Assembly (NCBI GenBank): GCA_964426205.1
Contig: CAYRPG010000005.1
Location: forward strand, 44,574-108,573
Reading direction: 5' to 3'
Source of the DNA: an uncultured Methanomassiliicoccus sp.
GTDB lineage: Archaea > Thermoplasmatota > Thermoplasmata > Methanomassiliicoccales > Methanomassiliicoccaceae
Length of the DNA: 64,000 nucleotides
This document shows, in pieces, positions 18,860 through 60,075 of this stretch. Position 1 is the first letter of the stretch. Every line of letters begins with the position of its first letter. The position numbers and the translations under genes are program-made. The notes beneath the pieces were generated by a model. It was not told the DNA's origin. It did not search any database and was given only the letters and a program-made list of their open reading frames with translations.

Positions 18860-21718
18860 TCAGTCAGCACTGTCTCCGCGGTGCTCTCCGACCAGCACCA
18901 TGTATGCGAGCAGCGACTCGAGCTGGATGCGCTCGTTCGATCCCTCGACGATGCGGAACTCCGTCTCTCCGGTGCGGTCGATCAGCTTCACCTTCTCATA
19001 GTCCGGTATATCGAGGTCGAATATCGTGCGGTGTATCTGCTTGATGATATCCTCGCCCGACAGCCCGTAGGATATCATGATCTCGTCAAGGCGGTTACGA
19101 GCGGCTATGAAATCACCGGTTATCGCTGTCTGGAGGAGCTCCCTGACCTCTTCCGGTCTTGCCGTCCCGGTGGTGTGGTAGACGAGGTCCACATTGATCT
19201 TATCGCCCAGCGACGCGGCCACCTGAAGGGAGTTGACGGCTTTCCTCATGTCCCCCTGGGACACGTGCACGAGCGCGTCCAGCGCATCATCGGTTATGCT
19301 GATTGCCTCAAGGGACGCGATATGCGTCAGGTAGTTGCGGACATCCTCAGCCCTCAGGGGGCGGAAGCGGAACACCGCGCATCTCGACTGGATGGGCTCG
19401 ATGATCTTTGAACTATAGTTACAATTGTGAGATACTATTCCGTTCGCAATGAAGTTGTGATTGTTCAGGCAGCCTATGTCACGCACGTCGTCGCACTCTA
19501 TCTCTCTCTTGCCGATGATTTCGTTCAAGACAAGCTCGGTCCCTGGAATATCGTACCGTTGCTCCCACTCCGAGTAACCCATGAAGCTTCTTGGCAGGTG
19601 CACTGGTTTGCCTTGGTTCACATGGATAACGAAATCCACGCTGCATCCATTTCTTCTCGAGATCTCACGCAGCGAGCGTTTACCGATCTCAAGCATTATT
19701 TGCGATGCTTTATTCTCCTGTTGCTCGAGAACGAATTGCTTGTGCTTTAGATACTCTCCAGCGAGTTGTGCTTTTTTCATCCTGTTCTTTTCATACGCGT
19801 ACCCTACCTTCTTGAAAAAGGCCAGCATGTTCTCGTTCGAGGAGTTTAGCACTAAGCTGAAGACAATCGGTACTTTTCTGTCCTTCTTCCTTGAGTATCC
19901 TGTCGATCTTTCCTCGATGTAGCTTTTTATGTCAAATTGAGCTAGAAGGTCCCTCATTTGCTCAAAGAAGGTCAATGCCTCAGCCCTTAACTCGGGCACC
20001 TTTTGCTGTCTGAACGATATCGCATTGAATGATTTCCTACCATCATGCGCAGGCGAGTCCGCCTCGCATCCGAACAACGAGCGCAGGAATTCCCTCTTGA
20101 CGAAACGGGTCCCATTGGCCACCCACGAGGGAATCGAGAAGCTCGTTGTTACCTTGTCACCGATCGGCGCCCCGAGGTACTCGCAGAGGAGAGCGAATGG
20201 TAGCGAGTCCACGTGGAACCAGGTTGTTGTCCCGACCAAGCGCCTTTGTGCTAGCTTATGGTCGATCCTCTTACTGTAGATATCCGAGCTTTTTATATGG
20301 AGGATCTCAAGGTCTTTTTTAACAGCATTCAGAGTGTCTTCGTTCCCCGTGAAAATTAGCCTTCTGCTCTTCCTCGTTACATGACCATCGCCCATTAAAA
20401 AGGCCACTATCCTGGCTAATGCGCCGATATGCTCGTCAGAATATGAGAGAGGAAGCAGTCCCTTCTGGGCCAATTCGTTGATGACCCTGTCCACAGTGCC
20501 CTTTGGAATATCCCTTCTCTTTATGTGTCTCTCGACTGTGGCAAACGCGACCTCTATCCCAAATTCCTTTTTGATCGCATTCTGTATGTCCCCTATGTTC
20601 CTTATCGAATGATGCGGCCCGATAGCCCTGAAATTATGGGTCTTTTTGTCAACTGTCCTTTCGACAGCCCCTTTTTGTTCTATGCTCCTCAATAATTGGC
20701 AAGTTCGGACCCTGCTAAGGTTGAGAGCGTTCTGTACCTCTTCCCGTGATGCTTTTCCCCTTGAGCTTATATAGTCATATGCTTCCTTCTCACGAACGGT
20801 GAGTCCCTTTCCCTGGGTGACGAGGGAGTGCAGCTCCCTGATCCTTTTTATTACGTTATCCTTCTGGACGGTCGTCATCCCCTTGAACGCCCCGTTGTCA
20901 TTGGCGCGCTCCAGCTCCACTTCTGAGATGAATTTTTTAAAGTCCTCTGGATCGACCACTTGCCTCAGGTCGTCCTCAAATGGTGTCCCTTCGAGGTTTG
21001 GGTAAACTACGACCTCCGTCCCCAGAGCTATCTCGCCTGCTTTAGTCCAACCATCCTTGGTCAGAATAGGATGATCCTCAGTAACCTTGAGGATTCTGCC
21101 ATTCATCGTGGTAAGCTCATATACTTTTTTACCATTGGCGGAGGGGTTCATCTGCATACCGAACAGGACCAGGTCGTTCTCCAGACCTCTCGTTCCTTCG
21201 TTGACCCCGAGAGTGTTCTTTATCTCCCTGTTCTCAAACCTCCGCATGAAGTCGGCTATCGATATCTCCCTGTCCTCTGAGAGAAGGATCTTTGTGTCTG
21301 GTGTAACGCACGATAGAATGAATCTGCAGGTCTTGCTGTACTTCTCCATCGTTCGCCTCAATGCTGCCTGCGCGTCACCGGTTAGAGCGTCGGCCTCGTC
21401 CAGGAAAATGATCTTGAAACCGGCGCCCCCGATGGGCGCCGTCCTTGCGAAATCCTTTATCTTGCCACGGACCACATCGATGCCCCTCTCGTCCGACGCG
21501 TTCAGCTCGTTGAAGTTGCCCCTCCAGTTCTCCCCGAAGAGCTCCCTGGCCAGAGCGATGGCGGAGGTGGTCTTACCGGTGCCGGCCGGACCAGCGAACA
21601 TCAGGTGGGGAAGGTTCTTCGCCTGAACGTAGGACTCCAGGCGGTCCACGATGTCCTTCTGTCCGACGATCTCCTTAAGCGTCCTCGGCCGGTACTTCTC
21701 TATCCAAATCTCATTCAT
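18860..21718 (-). CDS. rfcS: replication factor C small subunit precursor containing one intein
   Basis: The exteins (136 + 187 aa) give a standard RFC small subunit with Walker [13 protein letters not shown] box FLDEAD and RFILS|[15 protein letters not shown]. Confidence 0.9.
19424..21310 (-). mobile_element. 629-aa intein with LAGLIDADG homing-endonuclease core
   Basis: Starts at Cys ([10 protein letters not shown]) and has block [18 protein letters not shown] motifs [11 protein letters not shown] and [11 protein letters not shown], and terminal [13 protein letters not shown] followed by the +1 Cys. Visibly more AT-rich than the exteins. Confidence 0.85.
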
Positions 21719-24814: not shown

Positions 24815-26647
24815 CTACCTTGCGGGGTACAGGTCCGATATGCCCAGCTCGACCGAGCGCTGCTGGACGGCCTCGCGGACCTCGGGGGACATCTCGATCT
24901 CGTCCGGCCATTCTCTCGCGTGACCGTCGGCCACCCCCTTCTTGGAGGCGTCGATGGACACAGACGTGTCGGTCAGCCTGATGTCCCTCTGGGGGTCCAC
25001 GTTGTTGAAGAACTTCCATAGGCACAGCGAATCGTCGCGCAGATCGATGTCGTCGTAGAGCACGAACGCTCCCTCTCCCACCAGCTCCCGGCAGGACGCC
25101 AGCGGCCCGAGGAAGTGCATGGTCCCCCGGCCCGCCTTGCGCATGCCGATCAGGATGAGGGGGGTCCTCCGCTCCGTCCCCACCCTCCGGCAAGAGACGA
25201 TGTCCCTGTCCAGGCCCCTCAGGATCTCGAGGACCTCGGTCTCCGACAGCCTGGGAGAGAAGCGCCCGCGCCCGCGGGGGGTCTCGTCCGTCAGCCGGGC
25301 GGTGGCATCGATGCCCAGCTTCCCTCCGAACAGGGGCCTGGGGGCCGAGTGGTCGAGGACGTCCAGAACGCCCTCCGTCACCTGGAGGTCGGACCACGGG
25401 TCGATGGTGTCCAGCAGATGGCCGAAGACGTCCCCGGGCACCTTGAGCGAGACGTCGGAGTCCACTACGGCGATCATCTTGGCGAAGCTCATCTGTCCGG
25501 AGCCCCACAGGGCGTTCATGACCTTGCGGGCATGAAGGGGATACTCCTTCCTTATCGAAACGACGACGATGTTGTGGAATACGCCCTCCCAGGGCATCCA
25601 CTGGTCGACCACCTCAGGCACCACGATGCGCAGGGGCGGAAGGAATATCCTCTCGGTGGCCTTGGCCAGGTAGCAGTCCTCCATCGGCGGCCTTCCCACC
25701 ACCGTGGCCGGATAGATGGCGTCCCTGCGGTGCGTGATCGCCGTCACGTGGAACACCGGATATTCACCCTTCAGCGAGTAGTAGCCAGTATGGTCGCCGA
25801 AGGGGCCCTCGGTCCTCATCTCCTGCGGGTCGACGTAACCTTCCAGTACGAACTCCGCGGTCGCGGGCACCTCGATGTCGACGGTCCTGCACTTCACAAG
25901 GTCCACCGGTGCTCCCCGGATGAAGCCCGCCAGCAGCATCTCGTCCAGGCCCTGGGGCATGGGGGCGGTGGCCGCGTAGGTGATCGCAGGCGCGGTCCCG
26001 ATGGCCACCGCCACCTCCATCCTCCTCCCCTCCTTCTTATACCCCATGTAGTTGTGGCTCCCGTCCTTGTGGACGTGCCAGTGCATGCCCGTGGTGTTGC
26101 GGCCGTAGACCTGCAGGCGATACATGCCCACGTTCCTCCTCCCGTCCATGCTCTTGGTGAAGACCACCGGGAGGGTCACGAAGCGCCCGCCGTCCTGGGG
26201 CCAGCACTTGAGGACCGGGATCTTGCCGAGGTCCACCTCGTCGCCCTGCAGGACAACCTCCTGGCAGGGCGGGCGCGATGATCTCTTTACGCGCGGGATG
26301 CACTTCGCTAGGCCCATCAGCTCGGGCAGGGTGCCCACCTTGCCCATGAAGGTGGAGGGCATCTGCATCTCCAGCAGACCGGAGATCCTGGCCGCCAGCG
26401 TGTCCAGCGAATCGGTCTCCAGCGCCAGCGCCATCCTTCCCTCGCTGCCGAAGGCGTTGGTGAGAACGGGGAACTCGCTGCCGCGGACCTTCTCGAACAG
26501 CAGCGCCTTGCCTCCGCCCGGGCTCTTGGACATGCGGTCCGTGATCTCGGTGATCTCCAGCTCGGCCGATACCTCGCCCTTGATCCTCCGCAGCTCCCCC
26601 TTGCTCTCGAGGAGGTCGACGAACTCGTGCAGGTCCCTGTAGGTCAT
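24815..26647 (-). CDS. UbiD-family (prenylated-FMN-dependent) aromatic decarboxylase
   Basis: 610 aa with a typical UbiD N-terminus (DLHEFVDLLESKGELRRI). Translationally coupled (ATGA) to the upstream methyltransferase gene. Confidence 0.85.
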   Translation of the reverse strand: MTYRDLHEFVDLLESKGELRRIKGEVSAELEITEITDRMSKSPGGGKALLFEKVRGSEFPVLTNAFGSEGRMALALETDSLDTLAARISGLLEMQMPSTFMGKVGTLPELMGLAKCIPRVKRSSRPPCQEVVLQGDEVDLGKIPVLKCWPQDGGRFVTLPVVFTKSMDGRRNVGMYRLQVYGRNTTGMHWHVHKDGSHNYMGYKKEGRRMEVAVAIGTAPAITYAATAPMPQGLDEMLLAGFIRGAPVDLVKCRTVDIEVPATAEFVLEGYVDPQEMRTEGPFGDHTGYYSLKGEYPVFHVTAITHRRDAIYPATVVGRPPMEDCYLAKATERIFLPPLRIVVPEVVDQWMPWEGVFHNIVVVSIRKEYPLHARKVMNALWGSGQMSFAKMIAVVDSDVSLKVPGDVFGHLLDTIDPWSDLQVTEGVLDVLDHSAPRPLFGGKLGIDATARLTDETPRGRGRFSPRLSETEVLEILRGLDRDIVSCRRVGTERRTPLILIGMRKAGRGTMHFLGPLASCRELVGEGAFVLYDDIDLRDDSLCLWKFFNNVDPQRDIRLTDTSVSIDASKKGVADGHAREWPDEIEMSPEVREAVQQRSVELGISDLYPAR

Positions 26648-27378
26648 GAGGACCCCTTCTCCAGCACATAGATGTGGCAGGCCCCGAGCGTCAGCTCCCT
26701 TGACCTCAGGACGTGGAGACCACGGGCCTCCATCATGCCCTCCAGGACCTTCGGAGCTGGGAAGGTGATGATCGAGTCGCAGAGGTAACGGTACGAGGAA
26801 GCATCACCTTTCTGCATCCTCACCACCATGGGCATCACCCTGGTCAGGTAGAGAAGGAACGCCTCCTTCACGACCGGGAACCGGGGCACAGACATCTCCA
26901 CCACCGCCAGGCGGCCCCCCGGGCGGAGGATGCGATGGACCTCGCCGAGGAAGCGGTCGATGTCCACCATGTTGCGGATGCCGAAGGCGACCATCGCCCG
27001 ATCGAACGAACCGTCCTTGAAGGGCATGCGGAGGGCATCGCCCTGGAGCACCGAGTACGGATCTTCGCCGACCTTCGCTCTCCACTTGTCCAGCGCGGTC
27101 CGCAACATGTTCTTCGAGAGATCGACCCCGACGATCTGGCAATCCTTCATCGAGATGGCCTGCAGGGCCATATCCCCCGTCCCGGTGGCTATGTCCAGGA
27201 CCCGGTCGCCCTGCTGGATGTCCAGCTCCATCAGGGTCTCCCTCCTCCACCATCGATCGATGGACGCGGACATGATGAGGTTGAGCCGGTCATAGGTCGG
27301 GGTGATGTCATCGAACATACCCTCGATGCGGGCCGGCCTCTTGTCAAGCTCCTTCCTTATGCTGGCATGTTCGCTCAT
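26644..27378 (-). CDS. UbiE/MenG-type C-methyltransferase
   Basis: The last 244 aa of the 594-aa track ORF, starting at MSEHAS. Contains the SAM motif VLDIATGTGD and FGIRN. Confidence 0.85.
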   Translation of the reverse strand: MSEHASIRKELDKRPARIEGMFDDITPTYDRLNLIMSASIDRWWRRETLMELDIQQGDRVLDIATGTGDMALQAISMKDCQIVGVDLSKNMLRTALDKWRAKVGEDPYSVLQGDALRMPFKDGSFDRAMVAFGIRNMVDIDRFLGEVHRILRPGGRLAVVEMSVPRFPVVKEAFLLYLTRVMPMVVRMQKGDASSYRYLCDSIITFPAPKVLEGMMEARGLHVLRSRELTLGACHIYVLEKGSS

Positions 27379-27422: not shown

Positions 27423-29051
27423 TCATATCAGGAAGGCCCCCAGGGCCACGGCGACGAACACCATGATGGATATCACGCTGTTGACATCGAAGAACGCGAC
27501 GTTTATCTTTGAAAGGTCCGACGGCCTGACCAGCAGATGCTCGATGACGAAGAGACCGCCGATGAGGGCCACGCAGACCAGGTAGGCTATGCTGAGGTCG
27601 AGCAGCCAGTACAGGGATGCCAGGCTCACGATGCTTATGACGTGCAGGCCGGTGGATATGAGCAGCGCGGGGGTTACGCCCAGGCGCGACGGTATGGACC
27701 GCAGCCCCTCCCTGCGGTCGAACTCGATGTCCTGGCATGCATAGAGGATATCGAAGCCGGCGATGTAGGTCGAGAGGGCAAGGCTCAGGACCGCGGTGGC
27801 CATCGTGATGGTCCCGGTGACCGCCACACTCGCCCCCAGGGGCATGAGGCCTATGGATATGCCCAGCACCAGGTGGCTGGCGGAGGTGAACCTCTTCGTA
27901 AAGGAGTATCCGATCAGGATCGCCAGCACCGGGAACGACAGGACGAGGCACAGCGGCGACAGCATCGCCGCCGCTCCGACGAAGACCGCCGCGGAGAACA
28001 CGCCGAACATCGTGGCCTCTCGGACCGATAGTGTCCCGGACGGTATGTGCCGCTTCGCCGTTCGCGGGTTCCTGCCGTCGATACCGGCGTCGATCACCCG
28101 GTTGAAGCCCATCGCCGCGGAGCGTGCGCTCACGATCGCGACGATGATCCAGAGCATCGCCTCCGCGCTGATGGCATAGTCCTTGTTGAGGATCACCAGG
28201 GCCGCGAGCCCGAAGGGCAGGGCGAACACGGTGTGGCTTATCTTGATCATATGGGAGTAGGTGACGATCTTTTCCCACAGCCGCCCCTTCTCCTCCTCTT
28301 CCTCGCCCTGCACCATCCAACGGCAGCTCCTGCGCTCTAGGAAGGTAAAGGCCTCGTAGATCGTTATCCCCAGGAGGCTCATGGCCAGGATGCCGACGTA
28401 GATCTGCACGTACTGCCCCCAGTTCCACGCGCTCATGATCATGTACCCGAGGCCGGAGGAGCCGGCGAAGGTCTCGGCGAAGAACAGCACCGAGATCGAC
28501 GTCCCGGTGACTATGCGCAGGGCGGTGAAGCAGCTGGGGAGCGCCGCGGGGATCACCGCCTCCCGGATGATGTCCTTCTCCGACGCTCCCATGGAGCGCA
28601 TCGAGTCGATATACTTGCGGTCCAGACCGCTGACGCCTTCCTTGGTCGCCACCAGGATCTGGAAGAAGACCACCAGGGTGATCAGCAGGATCTTGGAGAG
28701 GTCCCCCAGGCCGAACAGCAGGATGATGACCGGCAGGAACACCATCTTCGGTATCGGGTAGGTGAGGAATATGAGGGGGCTGACCAGCCGGTCCGTCTTG
28801 CGATTATAGCCTATGATCATTCCGAGGGGGAAGGCGAGCGTCCAGGCCAGCGCGATGCTCGCGAGCACCCTGAACGAGCTAATGGCGAGATGGGACCAGA
28901 ACTGGCTGGTTCCCGCGGCATCCCAGAACGCCCTCAGGGTCTGCTCCGGGCCCGGAAGGACCACCGATCCGACCGCGAGCGAGGCGACCTTCCAGATGAG
29001 AAGACAGGCGGCCACGGACATGGCATAGCCGAGGAGGCGCTGCTTGTTCAT
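27423..29051 (-). CDS. NitT/TauT-type ABC permease (about aa 1-245) continuous in frame with a UbiA-family prenyltransferase (aa 246-542)
   Basis: The permease start ATG at 29051 overlaps the ATPase stop. The natural permease end ...FLERRSCRW runs straight into MVQGEEEEEKGRLW...NRVIDAGIDGRNPRT (UbiA motif) with no in-frame stop; I checked the junction by hand at 28301-28360. UbiA could instead initiate separately at ATG 28316. Confidence 0.6.
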   Translation of the reverse strand: MNKQRLLGYAMSVAACLLIWKVASLAVGSVVLPGPEQTLRAFWDAAGTSQFWSHLAISSFRVLASIALAWTLAFPLGMIIGYNRKTDRLVSPLIFLTYPIPKMVFLPVIILLFGLGDLSKILLITLVVFFQILVATKEGVSGLDRKYIDSMRSMGASEKDIIREAVIPAALPSCFTALRIVTGTSISVLFFAETFAGSSGLGYMIMSAWNWGQYVQIYVGILAMSLLGITIYEAFTFLERRSCRWMVQGEEEEEKGRLWEKIVTYSHMIKISHTVFALPFGLAALVILNKDYAISAEAMLWIIVAIVSARSAAMGFNRVIDAGIDGRNPRTAKRHIPSGTLSVREATMFGVFSAAVFVGAAAMLSPLCLVLSFPVLAILIGYSFTKRFTSASHLVLGISIGLMPLGASVAVTGTITMATAVLSLALSTYIAGFDILYACQDIEFDRREGLRSIPSRLGVTPALLISTGLHVISIVSLASLYWLLDLSIAYLVCVALIGGLFVIEHLLVRPSDLSKINVAFFDVNSVISIMVFVAVALGAFLI

Positions 29052-29782
29052 AGCGCCTCCACCGCCCGACGGACCTGACGGCACACCTCGAAGAACTCCT
29101 CCTTGTTCCGGTAGTCCCGATCTCCGGCGCCGGGATTGGGAAGGACCGTCCTGATGCTGCACGGCCGGCCGCCGAGGACCATGATCGAGCCGCCGAGGAA
29201 AACGGCCTCCTCGATGCTGTGGGTCACCATCACCATGGTGAGGTCCCGTTGCGACCTGATCTCCAGCATGGCGTTCTGCAGCCTCTCCCGGGTCAGGGTG
29301 TCCAGGGAGGAGAACGGCTCGTCCATGAGGAGGAGGGACGGCTCCAGGGCGAGCGCCCTTCCTATGGCCAGTCTCTGCCTCTCCCCGCCGCTGAGCCGGG
29401 CGGGGTACTTGTCCCCGTGCGGCCCGAGGCCGAGGTGCTCGAGCATCTCCCTCGAACGGCGTTCCTGCTCCTCCTTGGGAACCTTCCTTATCCTCATCCC
29501 AAGGCACAGGTTCTCCTTCACCGTCTTCCACGGGAGGAGCCCGAAGTCCTGAAGAATGAAGCCCACCTGACGGGAGGGGGCGGTGACCTCCCTTCCGTCG
29601 ATGAGCACGCGGCCCGCGGTCGGCTTCGTCAGCCCGGCCATGATGTACAGCAGGGTGCTCTTGCCGCAGCCGGAGGGGCCGATGATGGTCAGCGAGGTGC
29701 CTCTCTTCACTGAGAACGAGAGGTCCTCAAGGACCTTCGTCCCAGCTCCGTACTCCTTGCAGAGGCCCTCGACCGCCAGCAT
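29048..29782 (-). CDS. ABC transporter ATP-binding protein (NitT/TauT family)
   Basis: Walker A GPSGCGKST, signature LSGGERQR, Walker B LLLMDEP. Confidence 0.85.
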   Translation of the reverse strand: MLAVEGLCKEYGAGTKVLEDLSFSVKRGTSLTIIGPSGCGKSTLLYIMAGLTKPTAGRVLIDGREVTAPSRQVGFILQDFGLLPWKTVKENLCLGMRIRKVPKEEQERRSREMLEHLGLGPHGDKYPARLSGGERQRLAIGRALALEPSLLLMDEPFSSLDTLTRERLQNAMLEIRSQRDLTMVMVTHSIEEAVFLGGSIMVLGGRPCSIRTVLPNPGAGDRDYRNKEEFFEVCRQVRRAVEAL

Positions 29783-29786
29783 CAGG

Positions 29787-30752
29787 TCACCGGTACAGCG
29801 CAGTGGCCATCACGTCATCGTACTCGAACCCAGCGGTCAGCATGCCCTTGCCGACCATCCATTCCTGGACCCTCGCCAGGTCGGACCCCGTGGGAAGTGA
29901 GATCGAGGACATGGGAGGGAAGTCGAACGCCTTCTCCAGGTCCGCCGGGAAGTGGATCTTGTCCTCGAGGGTCCTGTTGAACGCCATGGGGTCGGAGTTC
30001 ACCAGGGAGACGCTTTCGTTGTAACCGTCGAGGAAGCTCCTCACGGCACCCTCATGCTCGGAGATGACGCTGTCGCGCAGAGCGAGCACCGTCGCGGCGG
30101 TGTCGATGCCGCGATCGTCCGCCAGGAGGACCGCCCCGTCCTTGATGGCCCGGGTGGCGAACGGTTCCGGCAGGACCGCCACGCCGATCTGGTCGGCCAG
30201 CAGGGAGTTGTACCGGATGGGTATGGACGGTATCTCGTTGATCTTCACCTCGCCGGTGTAGTTGTTGACCCTCAGCATCTCCCCGAGGAAGAACTCGGAG
30301 ATGGACGCGCGGGAGGTGGCGATGGCCGAACCGTTGAGCTGCGAGAGATCGGTGATGCCAGAATGGGGGGAGGCCAGGATGGCGAACATCCGGTGGTCCT
30401 CGAGAGTGTGATAGTCGACGGTGACCACCTTGACGGCGGTGCTCTTCGCGATGACCAGGGTGTTGACCAGATCGCCGAAGTAACCATCGATGCTGCCGGC
30501 AGTGAAGGCAGCGTCACGCTCCATGGCGCTGTTGAACTCCACCAGCTCGACGTTGACACCTTTGTCGGAGAATATGTTATTCTCCGCCCCAACATAGAGG
30601 GGCAAGGTGTCGATCACGGGCAGGACCCCTATCCTCAGGGTCACCTTACCATCGTCGCCCTTGGGTGACAGCATGGTCGCAGCACCCGCGATGATGACAG
30701 CGGACGCGATCAGCAAAGTGATCGCGATGAGTATCTTGTTCCTCTTTTCCAT
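29787..30752 (-). CDS. membrane-anchored ABC substrate-binding protein (NMT1/SsuA-like)
   Basis: 321 aa with an N-terminal signal/anchor helix and a type-2 PBP-like body (RIGVLPVIDTLPLYVG). Confidence 0.8.
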   Translation of the reverse strand: MEKRNKILIAITLLIASAVIIAGAATMLSPKGDDGKVTLRIGVLPVIDTLPLYVGAENNIFSDKGVNVELVEFNSAMERDAAFTAGSIDGYFGDLVNTLVIAKSTAVKVVTVDYHTLEDHRMFAILASPHSGITDLSQLNGSAIATSRASISEFFLGEMLRVNNYTGEVKINEIPSIPIRYNSLLADQIGVAVLPEPFATRAIKDGAVLLADDRGIDTAATVLALRDSVISEHEGAVRSFLDGYNESVSLVNSDPMAFNRTLEDKIHFPADLEKAFDFPPMSSISLPTGSDLARVQEWMVGKGMLTAGFEYDDVMATALYR

Positions 30753-51011: not shown

Positions 51012-54000
51012 CTACATGTCCTTGCGCCTGAACGACAGAATGAACAGGACCATGAGGCCAGCCAGTATGATCGCTGCCACGAGCAGGACCGGCCACTCGA
51101 TGTCCGACGCGGACAGCTCGAAGCTTTGGCTCATCGATCGTGCGCCGGCCGTCACGCCCCCGCTCAGGGTCGCGACGCGGTACACCGCCGTTCCCTCCGG
51201 GGCTCCGTCATCGGTGAAGCTCCTGGCATCGCTGCCGTTCACGACCGCGATCAACACGAACTCGCCTCCCTCGACCTGCCGGTAGATCGCAAAGCCGGTC
51301 GCCGGTGCGGTCGTGGAGTTGGGGCTCGGCATCTCCCAGGTGATGATCGCTCCCTCGCCGCCCCTTGTGACCTTCAGGTTGGTCGGGGCGGGGGGCGGGA
51401 ACAGGGCGGTCGCCGATATCTCGGCCGGCGCACCTTCGCCTCCAGCGTTCACCGCGACGATGCGGTACCTGTAGCTCTCGCCCCCCATGACTCCAGTATC
51501 GTTGTAGCCGTTGGAGAGCACCACTGCGAGCCAGGTCATCGAACCCTCGGCACTGCCGCGATAGACGTTGTAACCGCTGACAGGCGCACCGCCGTCGTCA
51601 GGTGAGCTCCAGCTGAGAGCGACGTAGCCGACGCCCGCGTTCGCTTCCAGGCCCGAGGGGGCGTCCGGGGCGCGGAATGGGATCGCCGGGACCGCGTCGC
51701 TCATGATGCCCTCACCGACCTGGCTGATGGCCGAGACAGAGTAGTAGTAGGCCTGGCCGTTGACCGCCGATGTGTCGTTGAAGTACGCCATGGTGCCGAC
51801 GGTCTTGAGGAGGGCCATCGATCCGGCGCCCGTTCCGCGGTAGATGTTGTAGCCGGTGATCGGCGCGTCCGATGAGGGAACCGTCCACGAGATATTAGCC
51901 CAGGCATTGCCGGCGGACACGCCGATCGTTGCGGCCGAGGGGGCCGCCAAGGTCCTTGCCTGCATCTCCTCGCTTCCCACTCCATCCCCGGCCAGGTTGT
52001 AGGCGACGACGCTCAAGACATAGGTGAGATCGTTGCTCAGCCCACCGATGACAAAGCGGTACGTGAGGCCAGCATCGAACTGTGCGGAGTACGAGTTGCC
52101 AGCGCTCCTGATGAGCACCTTGTAACCCAGGACCGCTGATCCGTTGTCGTTCGATGGAGCGGACCAGGTGACGGTCACGTTCTTCGTCCCTCCCGCCAAG
52201 GCAACGTCCCTTGGTGCCGAGGGGGCGTTGTACGGCACAGCTTTGACCTCTACCGAGCGCTCGCCCTCATAGGCGGCATTGAAGGCCGACACCTGGTAGC
52301 TGTACTGCACACCGGCGACCACATGAACGTCATCGTAGGCCAGGTCCGTACCGGACAGCTCGGCGATCAGTGCGGGTGCCCCGCCGGAGGTCGAGCGGTA
52401 CACGCGGTAGCCGATGGCCGCGTTGCCGTCATCCGCCGGCGCGCCCCATGTAAGGTGGATTTCGCTGATATCTGGCGCAGCCACAACGTTCGACGGGGCG
52501 CTCGGCCAATATATCGTGGAGCTGCCGACCGGCGCGCAGACGGAGCCCTCGCCCGCCCAGTTGGACGCCGAGACGCTGTAGTAATACATCGTGCCGACAA
52601 TGACATCGATATCGGCGTACGAGGTCTGGTTGCCTATGGTAGCAAGGAGCGTCATGCTCTCAGGGGTGAGGCCGCGGTAGATCAGGTAGTGCTGCACACC
52701 GCCGCCCATGTCCGCAGGCGCTGTCCATTCGAGGTGGACGATCTCGCGCCCTCCCTCCACCTTGAGATCGGACGGGACATCGGGCACGTGGCACGGAACG
52801 CAGGTGAGCATGGGCCCATGGCCGCTGCTACCGAGCTCGTTCAGCGCGATCACGAAATAAGTATAGGAGTGCCCGTTGACCACCGAGGTATCGTTGAACT
52901 CGAGCACGGAGGTAGTGGATATCAGCATGGTCTTCGTGCTCCAGTCGATCACATCTCCCTCCAGCCGATACAGCTCATAGGCGGTGATGGTCCGCCCGCC
53001 GTTGTTCGCGACGGGAAGCCAGGACACGTTGACGTACGAATCGCCAGCTTTTGCGGGAAGCAGAACGGGCTCGGACGGCGTAGTCCCCGGCGAGCCCTCG
53101 ATTATGCCGGATAGGGAGCTGGACAGATCGGAGCTGTAGGCGAGCACCGCATAGTAGTACACATTGCCGTTGGTGAGCCCGGCATCGCTGTATTCGAAGC
53201 TCAGCCCAGCGTCGTACAGGAAGGCCATCGCCGACGGGGAAGTGCCGCGATAGATATGGTACCCGGCGATGGAGGGACGGCCCTCGAACCCGGGAGCTTC
53301 CCATGTAAGGTGAACCGTTCCGTCCCCGGGCTCTGCGCTCACCATGGTCGGAGCGCCGGGCGGGGCGTAGGACGAAGCGCTTGCTGCGCCAGAGAATTCG
53401 CCGGCCCCCATCGAACTGCCGGCGAACAACTTGTAGAACCAGGTCTTGTTCTGGCCCACCATGTCCACGTATCTTGTTGTGCTGCCGTCCAGCTCGATCA
53501 ACAGGGTGTACTGACCGTCCGTGGTGGCGCACCGGTACAGGTAATATCCGGTGATCCCTCCGCCGGTATAGGACGGTTGTTCCCACGTCAGGGTGATGTT
53601 GTTGAGACCTCCTACGGCGGTCAGGTCCTGTGGCTCGCTCGGCGGGTTGCCGCACTTGCCGGATACGGTAGCTGGAGCACCCTCGCCGATGCTGTCGGTG
53701 GCCGTTACCCTGTAGTAGTATGTCACACCGTCCTGCAGCCCCTGGTCGAAGAAGCCGGTCCTGTTGGTCGGGACGTCCGAAAGGAAGGTCATGCTGTCGA
53801 GGGATGTGCCCCTGTAGATCGTGTACTTGGTGAGGTCACTGGGATCGTAGCCTGAAGGGGGACCCCAGAACACATTGATCTTGCCCGGACCGTTGTTGTA
53901 ATGGCCGAGGTTCATCACCGGCCCCGGTCCCGCTGATGTCGTGGCGCTTGCTGGGGTACCGGCCGGCCCGGTCCCGATGGCGTTCACCGCGGCGACGGTC

Positions 54001-55481
54001 ACATGGTACTGTGTGCCATCGTCGAGGCCGCCCAGCATGATCGAGAGGCCGCCCTCGTGATGGTCGACATCATCTGCGGAGCAGGTCCGGTTCCAGGTGT
54101 ACGGTCCGGGAGAGGTCCCCCAGTAGATCACATAGCCAGTAATGTCGGAGGTGCCCGGCGCGTCCCAGCTTACGACAAGACCGCCCTTGCCGAGCGCAGA
54201 GGCTGTGATATTGAGGGGCTCGGAAGGAGATGAGCATCTCACCTCCACTGTGTCAGAGCGCACACTCTCGACATTATCTTCGTTCCAGGCCGATATCTCG
54301 TACTGGTAGGTGCACCCTTCCTGGACATCGGTGTCGTTGAAGTAAAGGTCGCCCTCGGTGTACCACAGCCATGTCCAACCATCCCCTGCGGTCACGTTGT
54401 TCCTGTAGATGTCGTACCACACGATGGGGGAGCTGCCGTCATCGACCGGTATCTCCCAGGTAAGCTTGACCTCACCGGGCACGGCGGCCCCCTGGAGGTT
54501 GCGTGGTGCATTGGGGGGTGCGATGTACTTTATTGACACCTCGCTGCCCCGGCCGCTCTCGCCCAGGGAGTTCACCGCGGCGACCTGGTAGTAATACGTC
54601 TCACCGACCGTCACCGCACGGTCGACGTAGCTGAGGTTCGTCCCGCCGGTACTGCCGATCAGGAGCTCATCGCCGGAGACCGTGGACCGGTAGATCCTGT
54701 AATCGGTTATGGCCGAACCGCCGTCCCCAGAGGGCGCCGACCAGGTCAGGGTCATGTTGTCGACCCCTGGAGCGCATTGGAGGTTCTGGGTGACACCCGG
54801 TTTACCGGCCGGCAGGGTGACCGTGATCTCGTTCGTGAGAGCGCTGTTGTAACCGTTGTACGCTGCCAAGGCATAATAATAGGTCTGTCCCCCGGCCACC
54901 GAGTCGTCCAGATAGGACAGGGAAGACCCCGGGAGCGAGGCGATCTGCGTCAGGGCGCCTGATACGGTCCCCCTGTGGACAGTGTAGTTCGCGATGCTTG
55001 CCCCGCCGTCATCGGCTGGAGCCGACCAGCTCAGAGCGACATTGCCATTGGAGACCGATGCCTGGAGGTTCGTCGGGGTTCCAGGATGATCGACCGTGGT
55101 TACGGGAGCCGACCATTCCGAGTAAGTGTATGATCCTCCGTAATCAGCGCAGATCTGGAAGTATAGGGTGTAGCCAGGGGGAAGCGGGGTGGAAAAGTCG
55201 GGGCTTCCACTCGTCGTGACGTGAGAGGTCGTTCCTCCGACCGTGGTCGGGAATCCAGATATCTGGATCGAGCCGTTCACGGTGCTCCAGTAGACATAAT
55301 ACTGCGACGGGGAGCCGGAAGCCGGGCTCCAACTGACATCTATGTACCCGACGCCCCCAACGCCAACAGGGGTCCCTGGAGCACTTCCCGTGGCCCCGGC
55401 CTCCGCCCCCTCGTACAAGAACGTCATTCCAGTCAAAAGCAGTGCAGCAGTCAGCAGAATCGTCGCGAGCTTCCTCATCAT
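51012..55481 (-). CDS. giant cell-surface protein: signal peptide, about 15 fibronectin type III-like repeats, C-terminal TM anchor
   Basis: Starts at MMRKLATILLTAALLL. Repeats of about 95 aa share the pattern P..P.NL.A..G.g.V.LSW..P..DGGS.I..Y.IYRG......Y.D..V..G..YYY.V.A.N..GEG. Ends in a hydrophobic helix followed by RRKDM. Confidence 0.8.
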   Translation of the reverse strand: MMRKLATILLTAALLLTGMTFLYEGAEAGATGSAPGTPVGVGGVGYIDVSWSPASGSPSQYYVYWSTVNGSIQISGFPTTVGGTTSHVTTSGSPDFSTPLPPGYTLYFQICADYGGSYTYSEWSAPVTTVDHPGTPTNLQASVSNGNVALSWSAPADDGGASIANYTVHRGTVSGALTQIASLPGSSLSYLDDSVAGGQTYYYALAAYNGYNSALTNEITVTLPAGKPGVTQNLQCAPGVDNMTLTWSAPSGDGGSAITDYRIYRSTVSGDELLIGSTGGTNLSYVDRAVTVGETYYYQVAAVNSLGESGRGSEVSIKYIAPPNAPRNLQGAAVPGEVKLTWEIPVDDGSSPIVWYDIYRNNVTAGDGWTWLWYTEGDLYFNDTDVQEGCTYQYEISAWNEDNVESVRSDTVEVRCSSPSEPLNITASALGKGGLVVSWDAPGTSDITGYVIYWGTSPGPYTWNRTCSADDVDHHEGGLSIMLGGLDDGTQYHVTVAAVNAIGTGPAGTPASATTSAGPGPVMNLGHYNNGPGKINVFWGPPSGYDPSDLTKYTIYRGTSLDSMTFLSDVPTNRTGFFDQGLQDGVTYYYRVTATDSIGEGAPATVSGKCGNPPSEPQDLTAVGGLNNITLTWEQPSYTGGGITGYYLYRCATTDGQYTLLIELDGSTTRYVDMVGQNKTWFYKLFAGSSMGAGEFSGAASASSYAPPGAPTMVSAEPGDGTVHLTWEAPGFEGRPSIAGYHIYRGTSPSAMAFLYDAGLSFEYSDAGLTNGNVYYYAVLAYSSDLSSSLSGIIEGSPGTTPSEPVLLPAKAGDSYVNVSWLPVANNGGRTITAYELYRLEGDVIDWSTKTMLISTTSVLEFNDTSVVNGHSYTYFVIALNELGSSGHGPMLTCVPCHVPDVPSDLKVEGGREIVHLEWTAPADMGGGVQHYLIYRGLTPESMTLLATIGNQTSYADIDVIVGTMYYYSVSASNWAGEGSVCAPVGSSTIYWPSAPSNVVAAPDISEIHLTWGAPADDGNAAIGYRVYRSTSGGAPALIAELSGTDLAYDDVHVVAGVQYSYQVSAFNAAYEGERSVEVKAVPYNAPSAPRDVALAGGTKNVTVTWSAPSNDNGSAVLGYKVLIRSAGNSYSAQFDAGLTYRFVIGGLSNDLTYVLSVVAYNLAGDGVGSEEMQARTLAAPSAATIGVSAGNAWANISWTVPSSDAPITGYNIYRGTGAGSMALLKTVGTMAYFNDTSAVNGQAYYYSVSAISQVGEGIMSDAVPAIPFRAPDAPSGLEANAGVGYVALSWSSPDDGGAPVSGYNVYRGSAEGSMTWLAVVLSNGYNDTGVMGGESYRYRIVAVNAGGEGAPAEISATALFPPPAPTNLKVTRGGEGAIITWEMPSPNSTTAPATGFAIYRQVEGGEFVLIAVVNGSDARSFTDDGAPEGTAVYRVATLSGGVTAGARSMSQSFELSASDIEWPVLLVAAIILAGLMVLFILSFRRKDM

Positions 55482-55719
55482 CAGATTTCCTCTGTGGCAG
55501 ACCAGTGGCAGGTTGTCCGCTCGCACGATGCTCAGAGCATCTTTGACCAGACAAGGACGAACGGCCCACCGTTCAAAAAAATACACTCTTTTTAATACCG
55601 GAGTTTATAACTATTTGTCTTGATAGTGAGATTGGAAAAACCTGGAGCAACGGCCGATGGCCCATAGGCGAACCTCAGAAGGCTTGACGAGGCACCCTTA
55701 GGAGCAAGAAGGGATCGAT

Positions 55720-55787: not shown

Positions 55788-57062
55788 TCAGGCCGAGGCC
55801 TTGGCGCCGTTACCGGCCTTGGCCCTGGTCTTGGCCTTGCTCTTCGCAGCGGTCTTCACCCCGGCCGCCTTGAGGAGCGCGTCGACCTTGTCCACCTTCT
55901 CCCAGGTGAACTCCGGCTCGTTGCGCCCGAAGTGGCCGTAGGCGGAGGTCTTCGTGTAGATCGGGCGGCGGAGGTTCAGGGCATCCATGATGCCGTCGGG
56001 AGAGAGGTCAAAGACCTTCACCACGGCCTCGGCGATCTTGTCCTCGGGGATCGTCGCGGTACCCTTTGCGTCCACCATGACCGATACCGGCTGGACGACG
56101 CCGATGGCGTAGGCCACCTGCACCTCCGCGGTCTTGGCGAGGCCTGCGGCCACGATGTTCTTGGCGATGTACCGGCACATGTAGGCGGCCGAGCGGTCCA
56201 CCTTGGTGGGGTCCTTGCCTGAGAACGCCCCGCCCCCATGACGGCCCATGCCCCCGTAGGTGTCCACGATGATCTTGCGCCCCGTCACGCCGGAGTCCCC
56301 GCAGGGCCCGCCGATGACGAACCTGCCAGTGGGGTTTATGAAGTACTTAGTCTTGGAGTCGAGCCACTTGCCGCATACCGGCTTGATGACCTTGTCCTTG
56401 ATGGCCTTCTCGATGAGGGCGTGGACCTTCTCATCCTCGGTCTCGCCCTCGATCTCCGGAGCGTGCTGCGTGGACACGACGACGGTGTCGATCCTCTTCG
56501 GCCTGCCGTCCTCGTACTCCACCGTGACCTGGGTCTTCCCGTCCGGGCGCAGCCAGGGCAGGGTCCCGTCCTTCCTGAGCTTGGCGAGCTGCATTGCCAG
56601 TTTCTGGGCCATCAGGATGGGCATGGGCATGAGCTCGGGGGTCTCGTCGGTCGCATACCCGAACATCAACCCCTGGTCCCCGGCACCGGTGGCCAACTTC
56701 TTTCCCTTCTTCTTCCGGCACACGCCCATGTCGATGTCGGCGGACTGGTCGTGAAGGGACGAGAGGACGCATATGTGGTCCGCATCGAACCCGTACTCAG
56801 GGTGATCGTACCCGATATCCCTTACCGCCTGGCGGATGATCTTGTCAGCGTCGACGTGAACGTTCAGGCAGGAATCGGTCTTGACCTCTCCCGCGACGAT
56901 CACCATGCCGGTCGTCGCCATAGTCTCTATCGCGATGTGCGCATGGGGGTCCTGGGCGAGATAGGCATCGAGAATGGAATCGGAAATACGGTCGCATAGC
57001 TTGTCAGGGTGACCCTCGGTCACGGATTCTGATGTGAACAGGTGGGATACCATCATGACCAC
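55788..57062 (-). CDS. metK: S-adenosylmethionine synthetase of the bacterial/eukaryotic MetK type, with a Lys/Ala-rich C-terminal tail
   Basis: [20 protein letters not shown] and [12 protein letters not shown] motifs. It ends with ...[22 protein letters not shown]. Confidence 0.9.
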
Positions 57063-58656: not shown

Positions 58657-60075
58657 TCAGTGGACGTGCTCGTGCTCCATCTGCTCAGGGTCTGACAGGC
58701 GCCCGAGCGCGGATATCAGCACCTCGCTCAGGGCAGGATGGATCACCTGGCTCCTGGCCATCGGCATGTATGACATGTCCCCGGCGTTCATGAGGTACAC
58801 CATCTGCTGGACCAGCAGGTCCGCGTCCTTCCCGGCGATGTGAACGCCCAGGATGCGCCGGGTGCCCTTCTCCACCACGACCTTGACCAGCCCGGTGTCG
58901 TCGGCCATGGCATTGCCCTTGGCCACGTTGGCGTACCGGCTGTAGCCGACCAGGTACTTCAGGCCGTTCGTCTTCGCCGCCTCTTCGGTCATCCCGACGC
59001 TTCCGACGGTCGGGTAGGTGTAGACGGCGTGAGGTATCGCGTGCTCGTCCGTCTCCGCCAGTTCCTGGTTGTTCATGTTGTACCAGACCACCTGGCTCTC
59101 GTAGTTGGCGGTATGACGGAACATGTGATGACCGGTGATATCCCCCAGCGCCCATATGCCTGGCGCGGTGGTCCGCAGGAACCGGTCGACCTTGATGTAG
59201 CCGAGGGCGTCCGTCTCCACCCCGGTCGCGCTGACGTTCAGCAGGTCGGCGTTGCTCTGCATCCCGGTCCCGATGAACAGCATCTCCGCCTCCTCGCTCG
59301 CCACGGCCCCTGTCCCCCGGTCCTCCCTCACCACTTCGACCCCTCCGCTGACGGGCCTCACCTCCCTGACCGTCTGGTTCGTCGAGATGGAAACGTGCTC
59401 CCCCAGCTTCTTCTTCACCACGAAGCTCATCTCCGGCTCCTCTTCCGGCACGAGCCTCACGTTCCTCTGCACGATGGAGACCCTGGTCCCCATGGCCGAG
59501 AAGAAGTGGGCGAACTCGCAGGACTTGTACCCGCCGCCGATCATGATGATGCTCTTCGGCAGGGCGGTGATGTCGAAGATGTTCTCCGAGGTCCGGTACG
59601 GCACCTTCTCCAGGCCCGGTATCGGAGGGATGTGCGATCGGGCGCCGGCGGCGAGCACTATGCTGGGGGCGTGGATCCTCTCGTTCCCCACCTCCAGGGT
59701 GTGGTCCCCGACGAACCTCCCCTGCACGTTGTACAGCTTCATGCGGGGGTCCATCCTGACCGCCTCCTCGATATGCTCCCGGTCGTGCAGGACGACGTCC
59801 CAGGTGCGCCTCCGGATAAGGTCGAAGTCCGCTCTCTCCAGCCGGGCGTGCACCCCGATCCTGGCGGCGTCCTCCATCTCCCTGATGATGTCGGCTGGGT
59901 AGATCCACATCTTGGACGGGATGCAGCCGCGGTTCAGGCAGGTGCCGCCCAGCGGGCCGTTCTCCACCAGGGCGACCCGATGGCCAGCGTTGACCGCCGG
60001 GTCCACGATGTTCATGCCCGCTCCGGACCCCACGATGATGATGTCGTACTCTTCCACGCGAACCCCGCTCAACAA
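58657..60075 (-). CDS. FAD-dependent pyridine nucleotide-disulfide oxidoreductase (dihydrolipoyl dehydrogenase / mycothione reductase-like)
   Basis: GSGAG dinucleotide motif, the redox-active GGTCLNRGCIPSK, and a C-terminal dimerisation domain. Confidence 0.8.
   Translation of the reverse strand: MLSGVRVEEYDIIIVGSGAGMNIVDPAVNAGHRVALVENGPLGGTCLNRGCIPSKMWIYPADIIREMEDAARIGVHARLERADFDLIRRRTWDVVLHDREHIEEAVRMDPRMKLYNVQGRFVGDHTLEVGNERIHAPSIVLAAGARSHIPPIPGLEKVPYRTSENIFDITALPKSIIMIGGGYKSCEFAHFFSAMGTRVSIVQRNVRLVPEEEPEMSFVVKKKLGEHVSISTNQTVREVRPVSGGVEVVREDRGTGAVASEEAEMLFIGTGMQSNADLLNVSATGVETDALGYIKVDRFLRTTAPGIWALGDITGHHMFRHTANYESQVVWYNMNNQELAETDEHAIPHAVYTYPTVGSVGMTEEAAKTNGLKYLVGYSRYANVAKGNAMADDTGLVKVVVEKGTRRILGVHIAGKDADLLVQQMVYLMNAGDMSYMPMARSQVIHPALSEVLISALGRLSDPEQMEHEHVH

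Follow-up and report, generated by a model that had tools for sequence, protein, structure and literature searches.

A single gene of an uncultured Methanomassiliicoccus sp. (NCBI GenBank assembly GCA_964426205.1, contig CAYRPG010000005.1, positions 44,574 to 108,573, 64,000 nt; this whole stretch is called the window) encodes in one frame the permease of an ATP-binding cassette (ABC) importer and a UbiA-family prenyltransferase. The fusion is almost certainly a genuine single-polypeptide gene, evolutionarily conserved and under selection, as judged by sequence comparison. A preliminary description of this DNA had suggested that an imported head-group could be prenylated on arrival; comparative genomics makes this the best-supported reading and narrows the putative head-group to a naphthoate. 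The full mechanism, in which a menaquinone head-group precursor would be salvaged and prenylated, is in our view the best explanation and reasonably probable.

The fusion lies on the minus strand in a single open frame, from ATG 29051 to TGA 27423-27425, with no internal stop. It comprises the following parts:

27423-29051, minus strand: whole fusion open reading frame (ORF), 542 aa plus stop codon
28317-29051, minus strand: permease domain, aa 1-245, six transmembrane helices, ending in the invariant C243-x-W245
28536-28643, minus strand: EAA/coupling loop of the permease, aa 137-172, ...DSMRSMGASEKDIIREAVIPAALP (aa 149-172), read from the sequence
28266-28316, minus strand: linker, aa 246-262, MVQGEEEEEKGRLWEKI, acidic, varying in sequence and length among homologs
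27423-28265, minus strand: UbiA-family (MqnP-like) prenyltransferase domain, aa 263-542, nine transmembrane helices, with the stop codon
28059-28103, minus strand: first Asp-rich motif NRVIDAGIDGRNPRT, aa 317-331, read from the sequence
27705-27731, minus strand: second Asp-rich motif DIEFDRREG, aa 441-449, read from the sequence

The DNA at the junction reads TTC CTA GAG CGC AGG AGC TGC CGT TGG ATG GTG CAG GGC GAG GAA and is translated as FLERRSCRW followed by MVQGEEEEEKGRLWEK, with Trp245 at 28317-28319 and Met246 at 28314-28316. Our re-reading of the frame agrees with the preliminary description that no in-frame stop interrupts the junction and that the product has 542 aa; the sole TAG nearby, reported there as off-frame, is located inside C-CTA-GAG. 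Likewise, the UbiA-type enzyme had been called complete with two motifs, and both are indeed in frame. Pfam finds the two domains in one polypeptide, BPD_transp_1 at aa 74-241 and UbiA at aa 278-525, both far above the gathering scores. The stop codon of the upstream ATPase gene overlaps the fusion's start codon as ATGA, and this 4-nt overlap was also seen in three other loci (L001-L003; compared loci carry L numbers throughout).

A Shine-Dalgarno-like AGGAG (in the Arg-Arg-Ser codons, within 28320-28334, minus strand) is positioned 10 nt 5' of the in-frame ATG 28316. Neither AGGAG nor Met246 is conserved among homologs. The suggestion that Met246 might serve as an independent start is weakened: this Met is unique to the sequence of the window, and initiation there would be at most a local peculiarity. 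A conserved internal start at this position was ruled out for the same reason, and the conserved M268 is already part of the first UbiA helix.

A search of 5.8 billion proteins yielded at least 120 homologs, all among the matches listed with both Pfam domains, at identities falling from 99% to 51%. Most are 534-568 aa long, apart from a few fragments from short contigs. Homologs with a named source come from Methanomassiliicoccus/Methanomassiliicoccales, Thermodesulfobacteriota/Desulfobacterales and Spirochaetota; a species survey with one genome per GTDB species (80 species-representative loci) adds 'delta proteobacteria' and one Chloroflexota fragment. Regarding a possible assembly error, a point raised in the preliminary description, the same 542-aa architecture occurs in other assemblies, with four such proteins clustering at 99% identity, and alignments of 20 and of 114 homologs show no exchange at C243 or W245. 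In free permeases of this subfamily the chain ends 3-10 residues past the same C-x-W, which bears out the earlier remark that the permease half stops at its own C-terminus. The next 15-25 residues past Trp245 are variable and mostly acidic in both alignments, so the acidic linker proposed earlier is likewise confirmed.

The two halves diverge in step, with permease/UbiA identities to the window of 82/79% in L001, 51/57% in L002, 57/53% in L009 and 59/55% in L018. Within a library clustered at 50% identity, a single representative and one fragment stand for the entire fused family. The fused family is thus a compact clade common to Archaea and Bacteria, and this sharing argues for horizontal transfer of the module. 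Public databases name the homologs 'UbiA-like polyprenyltransferase' (NCBI) or '4-hydroxybenzoate polyprenyltransferase' (JGI).

Approximately 11 of the 80 species-representative loci are fused, and all fused loci encode the cognate binding protein and ATPase wherever the contig reaches upstream. In the remaining loci (approximately 69) the UbiA gene is unfused and its product 48-58% identical to the C-terminal half; ABC genes were found beside none of them. These unfused genes, those of Desulfobacterota clusters included, are usually followed by UbiX and/or a long UbiD, which corresponds to the MqnP-MqnM-MqnL arrangement predicted for the last futalosine steps (PMC4746308). A permease gene adjacent to but separate from an MqnP-like UbiA gene was not encountered in any of the 80 loci. 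The presence of ABC genes in fused loci and their absence beside unfused UbiA genes indicate that the transporter accompanies this prenyltransferase only as a fusion. The preliminary description had named consistently separate orthologs as a finding that would speak against it; on the contrary, every locus that pairs this ABC system with this UbiA clade is fused.

A second comparison concerns more distant relatives of the transporter, in which binding protein, ATPase, permease, (MenG/UbiE) and UbiA-family prenyltransferase are encoded by separate genes. Such split clusters were found in Syntrophorhabdaceae, Desulfomonile and others. Their binding proteins are 33-36%, their permeases 41-45% and their ATPases 43-49% identical to those of the window, and the permease shares the C-x-W end. 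Six of the seven sampled loci (L091-L096) show this order, while L089, the Desulfosporosinus relative, is without an adjoining prenyltransferase. The contig of L092 ends directly past the methyltransferase gene, and a prenyltransferase is not visible there. In the remaining five the prenyltransferase is of the MenA type, as assigned by NCBIfam (L091, L093, L094) or by blastp to the L093 protein (L095, L096). The L093 enzyme scores 124 bits with TIGR00751 (cut-off 102), and the other NCBIfam-typed ones are matched best by PRK06080-type MenA models. Judging from these gene orders, a single transporter lineage goes together with two naphthoate prenyltransferases that are not orthologous, MenA and MqnP-like. 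The fused and split linkages together suggest that this lineage serves the terminal enzymes of both menaquinone routes. A TetR-family regulator gene, which may encode a precursor-responsive regulator, is located directly 5' of two split clusters (L096 4943-5599, L092 5320-5985).

On the minus strand of the window the fusion follows the genes for binding protein and ATPase and precedes those for UbiE/MenG and a 610-aa UbiD:

29787-30752, minus strand: substrate-binding protein, 321 aa, extracytoplasmic, with N-terminal membrane anchor, NMT1/SsuA fold
29048-29782, minus strand: ABC ATPase, 244 aa (Pfam ABC_tran 121 bits)
26644-27378, minus strand: UbiE/MenG-type C-methyltransferase, 244 aa (Pfam Ubie_methyltran 179.8 bits; TIGR01934 217.1 bits, cut-off 158.35)
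24815-26647, minus strand: long UbiD-family decarboxylase of the MqnL type, 610 aa (TIGR03701 619.5 bits, cut-off 495.9)

TIGR03701 is the NCBIfam 'menaquinone biosynthesis decarboxylase' of the futalosine route and matches aa 8-443 of this UbiD only. A C-terminal extension of about 160 aa (aa ~450-610) is kept in the ~600-aa UbiDs beside both fused and free MqnP-like genes. Every complete fused locus has a long UbiD gene downstream of the fusion. Archaea and three bacterial phyla share the gene order binding protein, ATPase, fusion, (UbiE or UbiX), long UbiD. It recurs in the genome of a related archaeon (L001), a Thermodesulfobacteriota metagenome-assembled genome (MAG; L002), Spirochaetota (L003/4, L011, L012, L014) and deltaproteobacterial MAGs (L009, L010, L013, L015, L016, L018). 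In eight of ten distinct complete bacterial fused loci UbiX is located between fusion and UbiD, in the place of the archaeal UbiE. Domain scans of the 64-kb window found no MqnA-E, Men, UbiX or polyprenyl synthase genes; its other scanned genes are housekeeping genes.

The prenyltransferase half passes Pfam PF01040 (172.8 bits, cut-off 34.2) and NCBIfam TIGR01475 (268.7 bits, cut-off 180.8), and its predicted fold matches ApUbiA (4od4) with a Foldseek TM-score of 0.87. In the first motif N317, R318, D321, D325, N328, R330 and T331, and in the second D441 and D445, are invariant across 114 homologs. Profile, NxxxDxxxD and DxxxD motifs and nine helices together place the domain in the UbiA superfamily. 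Its N-terminus and the loops bearing both Asp-rich motifs are cytoplasmic, as in solved UbiA enzymes. The family also shows the co-occurrence with MqnL, MqnM and MenG neighbors by which MqnP is recognized (PMC4746308). Among other UbiA proteins of the MqnP-like type we noticed further putative fusions, each with a single representative: a UbiE-like methyltransferase::UbiA of 721 aa (P0145), an Amidohydro_1::UbiA of 713 aa (P0187) and a UbiA::Na_H_Exchanger of 722 aa (P0129). The Amidohydro_1 partner may relate to aminofutalosine deaminase.

The permease half reaches 92.3 bits with BPD_transp_1 (PF00528, cut-off 26.4), and a PDB profile search as well as Foldseek (TM-score 0.75-0.80) matches its fold to CmpB and NrtB. 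Hydropathy and the AlphaFold2 (AF2) model agree on six helices with a cytoplasmic C-terminus. The EAA loop is cytoplasmic and located between the fourth and fifth helix of the six-helix core; across 114 homologs no exchange occurs at S153, P168 or P172 and almost none at K146, Y147 and A169-L171. All equivalog cut-offs for named NitT/TauT permeases in NCBIfam are missed (SaoP 135.6/295; SsuC 130.9/347; TauC 120.2/342; ntrB 77.4/209), and by these scores the permease is assigned to the broad NitT/TauT-like family and to none of SsuC, TauC, NtrB or SaoP. The preliminary description had left the membrane topology to be checked: with the permease C-terminus and the UbiA N-terminus both on the cytoplasmic side, a chain of 15 helices is compatible. 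The AF2 model of the fusion, built on the 114-sequence alignment, has a predicted local distance difference test score (pLDDT) of 86.7 and a predicted template modeling score (pTM) of 0.71, the latter only a hint at a defined inter-domain arrangement. Confidence is lowest in the linker (pLDDT <50 at aa 250-252) and falls below 50 elsewhere only in the first three residues.

Reading of the ATPase translation shows intact motifs (Walker A GPSGCGKST, Q-loop, signature LSGGERQR, Walker B LLLMDEP, H-loop VTHS). The binding protein is matched by Pfam NMT1_2 and NMT1, scores under the NCBIfam SsuA_fam cut-off and is modeled by AF2 with a pLDDT of 92.6. All 83 aligned binding-protein homologs carry an N-terminal anchor, lipobox or signal peptide, and on this ground the ABC module is classed as an importer. 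The NrtB and CmpB homodimers serve as a model for the complex, which probably consists of (permease::UbiA)2, (ATPase)2 and the membrane-anchored external binding protein. Regarding the ligand, matches of a PDB sequence search were weak, and the Foldseek matches to SsuA, TauA, ThiY, Thi5 and PqqT, at 13-21% identity, are insufficient to name it. Foldseek matches to 7an5-7an8, 7ahr and 7ywc ('Enzyme of biosynthetic pathway'), which we take to be MqnA, were not used as evidence. PqqT of this fold group binds PQQ, a quinone tricarboxylate (9b1u), and by analogy an aromatic polycyclic acid would be within the range of the fold family.

From these observations we propose the following mechanism. The binding protein would take up a soluble aromatic-acid menaquinone precursor outside the cell, and ATP hydrolysis would push it through the permease dimer. 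On the cytoplasmic face the precursor would exit beside the active site of the tethered prenyltransferase, which also faces the cytoplasm and would alkylate it with polyprenyl diphosphate. The adjacent MqnL-type UbiD, a prenylated flavin mononucleotide-dependent enzyme accompanied by UbiX in most bacterial fused clusters, would then decarboxylate the membrane-bound product, and the adjacent UbiE/MenG would methylate it to a menaquinone-type quinone. The two routes, MenA and MenG starting from 1,4-dihydroxy-2-naphthoate (DHNA) and MqnP, MqnL, (MqnM) and MenG starting from 1,4-dihydroxy-6-naphthoate, share a plausibly importable dihydroxynaphthoate, which points to this class as cargo. A separate decarboxylase speaks for a carboxylate that outlasts prenylation; this fits 1,4-dihydroxy-6-naphthoate as well as 4-hydroxybenzoate, and DHNA less well. 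The substrate is therefore most likely 1,4-dihydroxy-6-naphthoate or a close naphthoate. Sequence and models show the domain identities, the intact catalytic and coupling motifs, the topology, the conservation and the synteny; the salvage role, the homodimer stoichiometry (by analogy) and any kinetic gain from the tether are what we infer for the assembled system. Tentatively, and with some doubt on our part, the lineage could be the first recognizable importer for soluble menaquinone head-group precursors, existing in a split (MenA) and a fused (MqnP) form, with uptake coupled to prenylation.

Several points weigh against this proposal. The substrate assignment is drawn from gene neighborhood only, and channeling between the halves is conjecture. 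The prenyltransferase half misses the NCBIfam MqnP models (MqnP_DT 248.8/430; MqnP_SCO4491 248.1/420; MqnP_Cj_Hp 226.5/375), although these three are clade-specific 'exception' models, so that missing them leaves MqnP function possible; models named 4-hydroxybenzoate polyprenyltransferase score similarly. In this genome some free UbiA could arise by internal initiation. A salvage role predicts carriers without MqnA-E or MenFDHCEB, and gene content was here read from the 64-kb window alone. To our knowledge, Methanomassiliicoccales are not known to contain quinones; nothing usable on reported quinones in this order was found in the literature, and 1,4-naphthoquinone in culture medium, considered as quinone evidence, was dismissed as a component of a standard vitamin mix. 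In a neighbor-joining tree of UbiA domains the fused proteins are scattered among free ones, whereas the permease tree unites the fused domains in a single clade with the MenA-linked permeases adjoining. On a single origin of the fusion the two trees, drawn without bootstrap, thus disagree.

Regarding the nature of the gene itself, we see next to no chance that an artefact or recent lesion, a TGA stop misread as or mutated to TGG, hides two truly separate products. TGG ATG is only one substitution away from TGA-ATG, a Met follows and AGGAG precedes that ATG by 10 nt, as would suit a lost stop; however, the invariance of W245 in 114 homologs down to 51% identity, in independent assemblies and in two domains of life, identifies TGG as a conserved Trp codon rather than a mutated TGA. 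The restriction of Met246 to this sequence, the four 542-aa proteins at 99% identity from other assemblies and the lack of any adjacent-but-separate locus among the 80 species representatives speak against it as well. It is decidedly improbable that the protein is made as a fusion and acts as two, separated by linker proteolysis or internal initiation, with the fusion providing co-expression and 1:1 stoichiometry. Such a separation would suit the variable and acidic linker, for which disorder is predicted, and the Shine-Dalgarno-like motif before ATG 28316, but the internal Met is not conserved, the next conserved one (M268) falls within the first UbiA helix, a conserved cleavage motif is not seen and the pTM of 0.71 hints at a defined arrangement of the two domains. 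The chance that the ABC module moves a lipid-linked species (polyprenyl diphosphate, a prenylated intermediate or the finished quinone) instead of the head-group appears very remote. Both partners are membrane-embedded, and in UbiA enzymes a portal opens laterally to the bilayer (ApUbiA structure, 4od4), as would suit a lipid mover; BPD_transp_1 type-I domains with an external binding protein are, however, importers of soluble solutes, and the binding protein has the small-ligand SsuA/ThiY fold.

The remaining alternatives accept a real fusion and an importer and differ in the cargo. That the solute is unrelated to the prenyltransferase (sulfonate, nitrate/bicarbonate, pyrimidine or metal chelate), the fusion being a neutral accident of operon compaction without coupling, we regard as improbable. 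Binding protein, permease and ATPase do match SsuA/TauA/NrtB/CmpB-type systems, if all below the equivalog cut-offs, and the Desulfosporosinus relative manages without an adjoining prenyltransferase. Against this stand the gene linkages, as the ABC genes adjoin this UbiA clade only as a fusion, with UbiD always downstream and UbiX/UbiE in most loci, and 6 of 7 loci of the sister transporter lineage show an independent link to MenA/MenG; furthermore, a neutral accident would not persist at 51-86% identity in both halves. The most serious rival, though in our judgment still unlikely, is a benzenoid or other aromatic acid such as 4-hydroxybenzoate, which would be imported and prenylated for a different prenylated carrier; in the methanogens the product might then be an undescribed membrane redox cofactor. 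UbiA, UbiD and UbiE are also the core of benzoquinone synthesis, PRK12888 gives 285 bits against 226-249 for the MqnP models (all below cut-off), JGI labels the homologs accordingly, and we know of no quinone in Methanomassiliicoccales. What favors the naphthoate over the benzenoid is that the partner decarboxylase passes the menaquinone-specific TIGR03701, that the closest unfused relatives occur in MqnP-UbiX-UbiD clusters of strict anaerobes, which use menaquinone rather than ubiquinone, and that MenA, to which the sister transporter is linked, belongs to a family specific for dihydroxynaphthoate.

Apart from the fusion locus, four features of the window were noted. At 18860-21718 (minus strand) a 952-aa ORF for the small subunit of replication factor C is split by an intein of ~620 aa (Pfam Intein_splicing, aa 147-765) with a LAGLIDADG_3 endonuclease and a TrmB-like helix-turn-helix region inside; the syntenic gene in L001 (18256-19227) encodes 323 aa and has no intein. 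A 1524-aa ORF rich in fibronectin type III repeats at 51012-55586 (minus strand) presumably encodes a cell-surface protein. An S-adenosylmethionine synthetase at 55788-57062 (minus strand) shows the three-domain S-AdoMet_synt architecture, which we take to be bacterial/eukaryotic rather than of the typical archaeal type and which may be horizontally acquired. The 472-aa pyridine nucleotide-disulphide oxidoreductase with dimerisation domain at 58657-60075 (minus strand) has a dihydrolipoamide-dehydrogenase-like architecture; lpdA is stated to be absent from Methanomassiliicoccales (PMC10804542), and the protein may be a different flavoprotein disulfide reductase.

A fusion of an ABC importer transmembrane domain with an intramembrane prenyltransferase is not known to us. 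The preliminary description likewise knew of no described example, and the full-text literature searched, which excludes most subscription journals, yielded neither such a fusion nor a naphthoate importer; the main text of a survey of archaeal fusion proteins mentions neither UbiA nor permeases. As far as we can tell, the split clusters of binding protein, ATPase, permease, MenG and MenA are undescribed too. In many anaerobes and gut microbes menaquinone synthesis is reduced to its last steps and growth is supported by fed precursors such as DHNA, and the entry of these precursors is an acknowledged gap. Ravcheev and Thiele (2016, PMC4746308) noted of the importers for soluble menaquinone precursors that they 'remain to be annotated' and that 'nothing is known' of them, and a 2023 mBio paper (PMC10746273) called quinone uptake pathways 'yet to be identified'. 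The fusion and its split MenA-linked relatives offer a testable candidate importer family, with a Rosetta-stone argument for the cargo, whose transporter half current annotation conceals from metabolic reconstructions. If the coupling is true, it would represent, as far as we know, a new ABC importer architecture, with the transmembrane domain tethered to an intramembrane enzyme, and the precursor would be trapped in the membrane on arrival in a group-translocation-like step for a lipid cofactor. Methanomassiliicoccales, not known to contain membrane quinones, would then make a prenylated naphthoquinone from a precursor scavenged from neighboring bacteria, which raises the question of a scavenged quinone in the energy conservation of human-gut and wetland methanogens.

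Each part of the system comes from a well-known superfamily; the novelty lies in the architecture and in the function implied for the transporter lineage. With MqnP (PMC4746308) and ApUbiA (4od4) the fusion shares nine transmembrane helices and two cytoplasmic Asp-rich motifs, and with MqnP also the neighbors, an MqnL-type UbiD, the bacterial UbiX (MqnM-like) and MenG/UbiE. It differs from MqnP in its 245-aa N-terminal ABC permease and in scoring below the three NCBIfam MqnP models. NitT/TauT importers (SsuABC, TauABC, NrtABCD, CmpABCD; 8wm8, 9u9z) similarly combine an NMT1/SsuA-fold binding protein, one ATPase and one permease of six transmembrane helices with an EAA loop, but none of the described members carries an enzyme on its permease as a fusion, and their cargo is an inorganic anion or sulfonate instead of the aromatic quinone precursor proposed here. 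The split MenA clusters have in common with the fused loci the transporter lineage, the C-x-W permease end and the link to a naphthoate prenyltransferase and MenG, whereas their genes are separate, their enzyme is of the MenA type (classical pathway, DHNA) and UbiD is missing. The MenA route from DHNA needs no separate decarboxylase. A hand-over of cargo to a tethered or partnered modifying enzyme is found in MprF (lysyl-phosphatidylglycerol synthase-flippase), LplT-Aas, FadL/FadD vectorial acylation and group translocation by the phosphotransferase system. The fusion would resemble these systems in its trapping logic, while their transporter classes and chemistries differ from its own.

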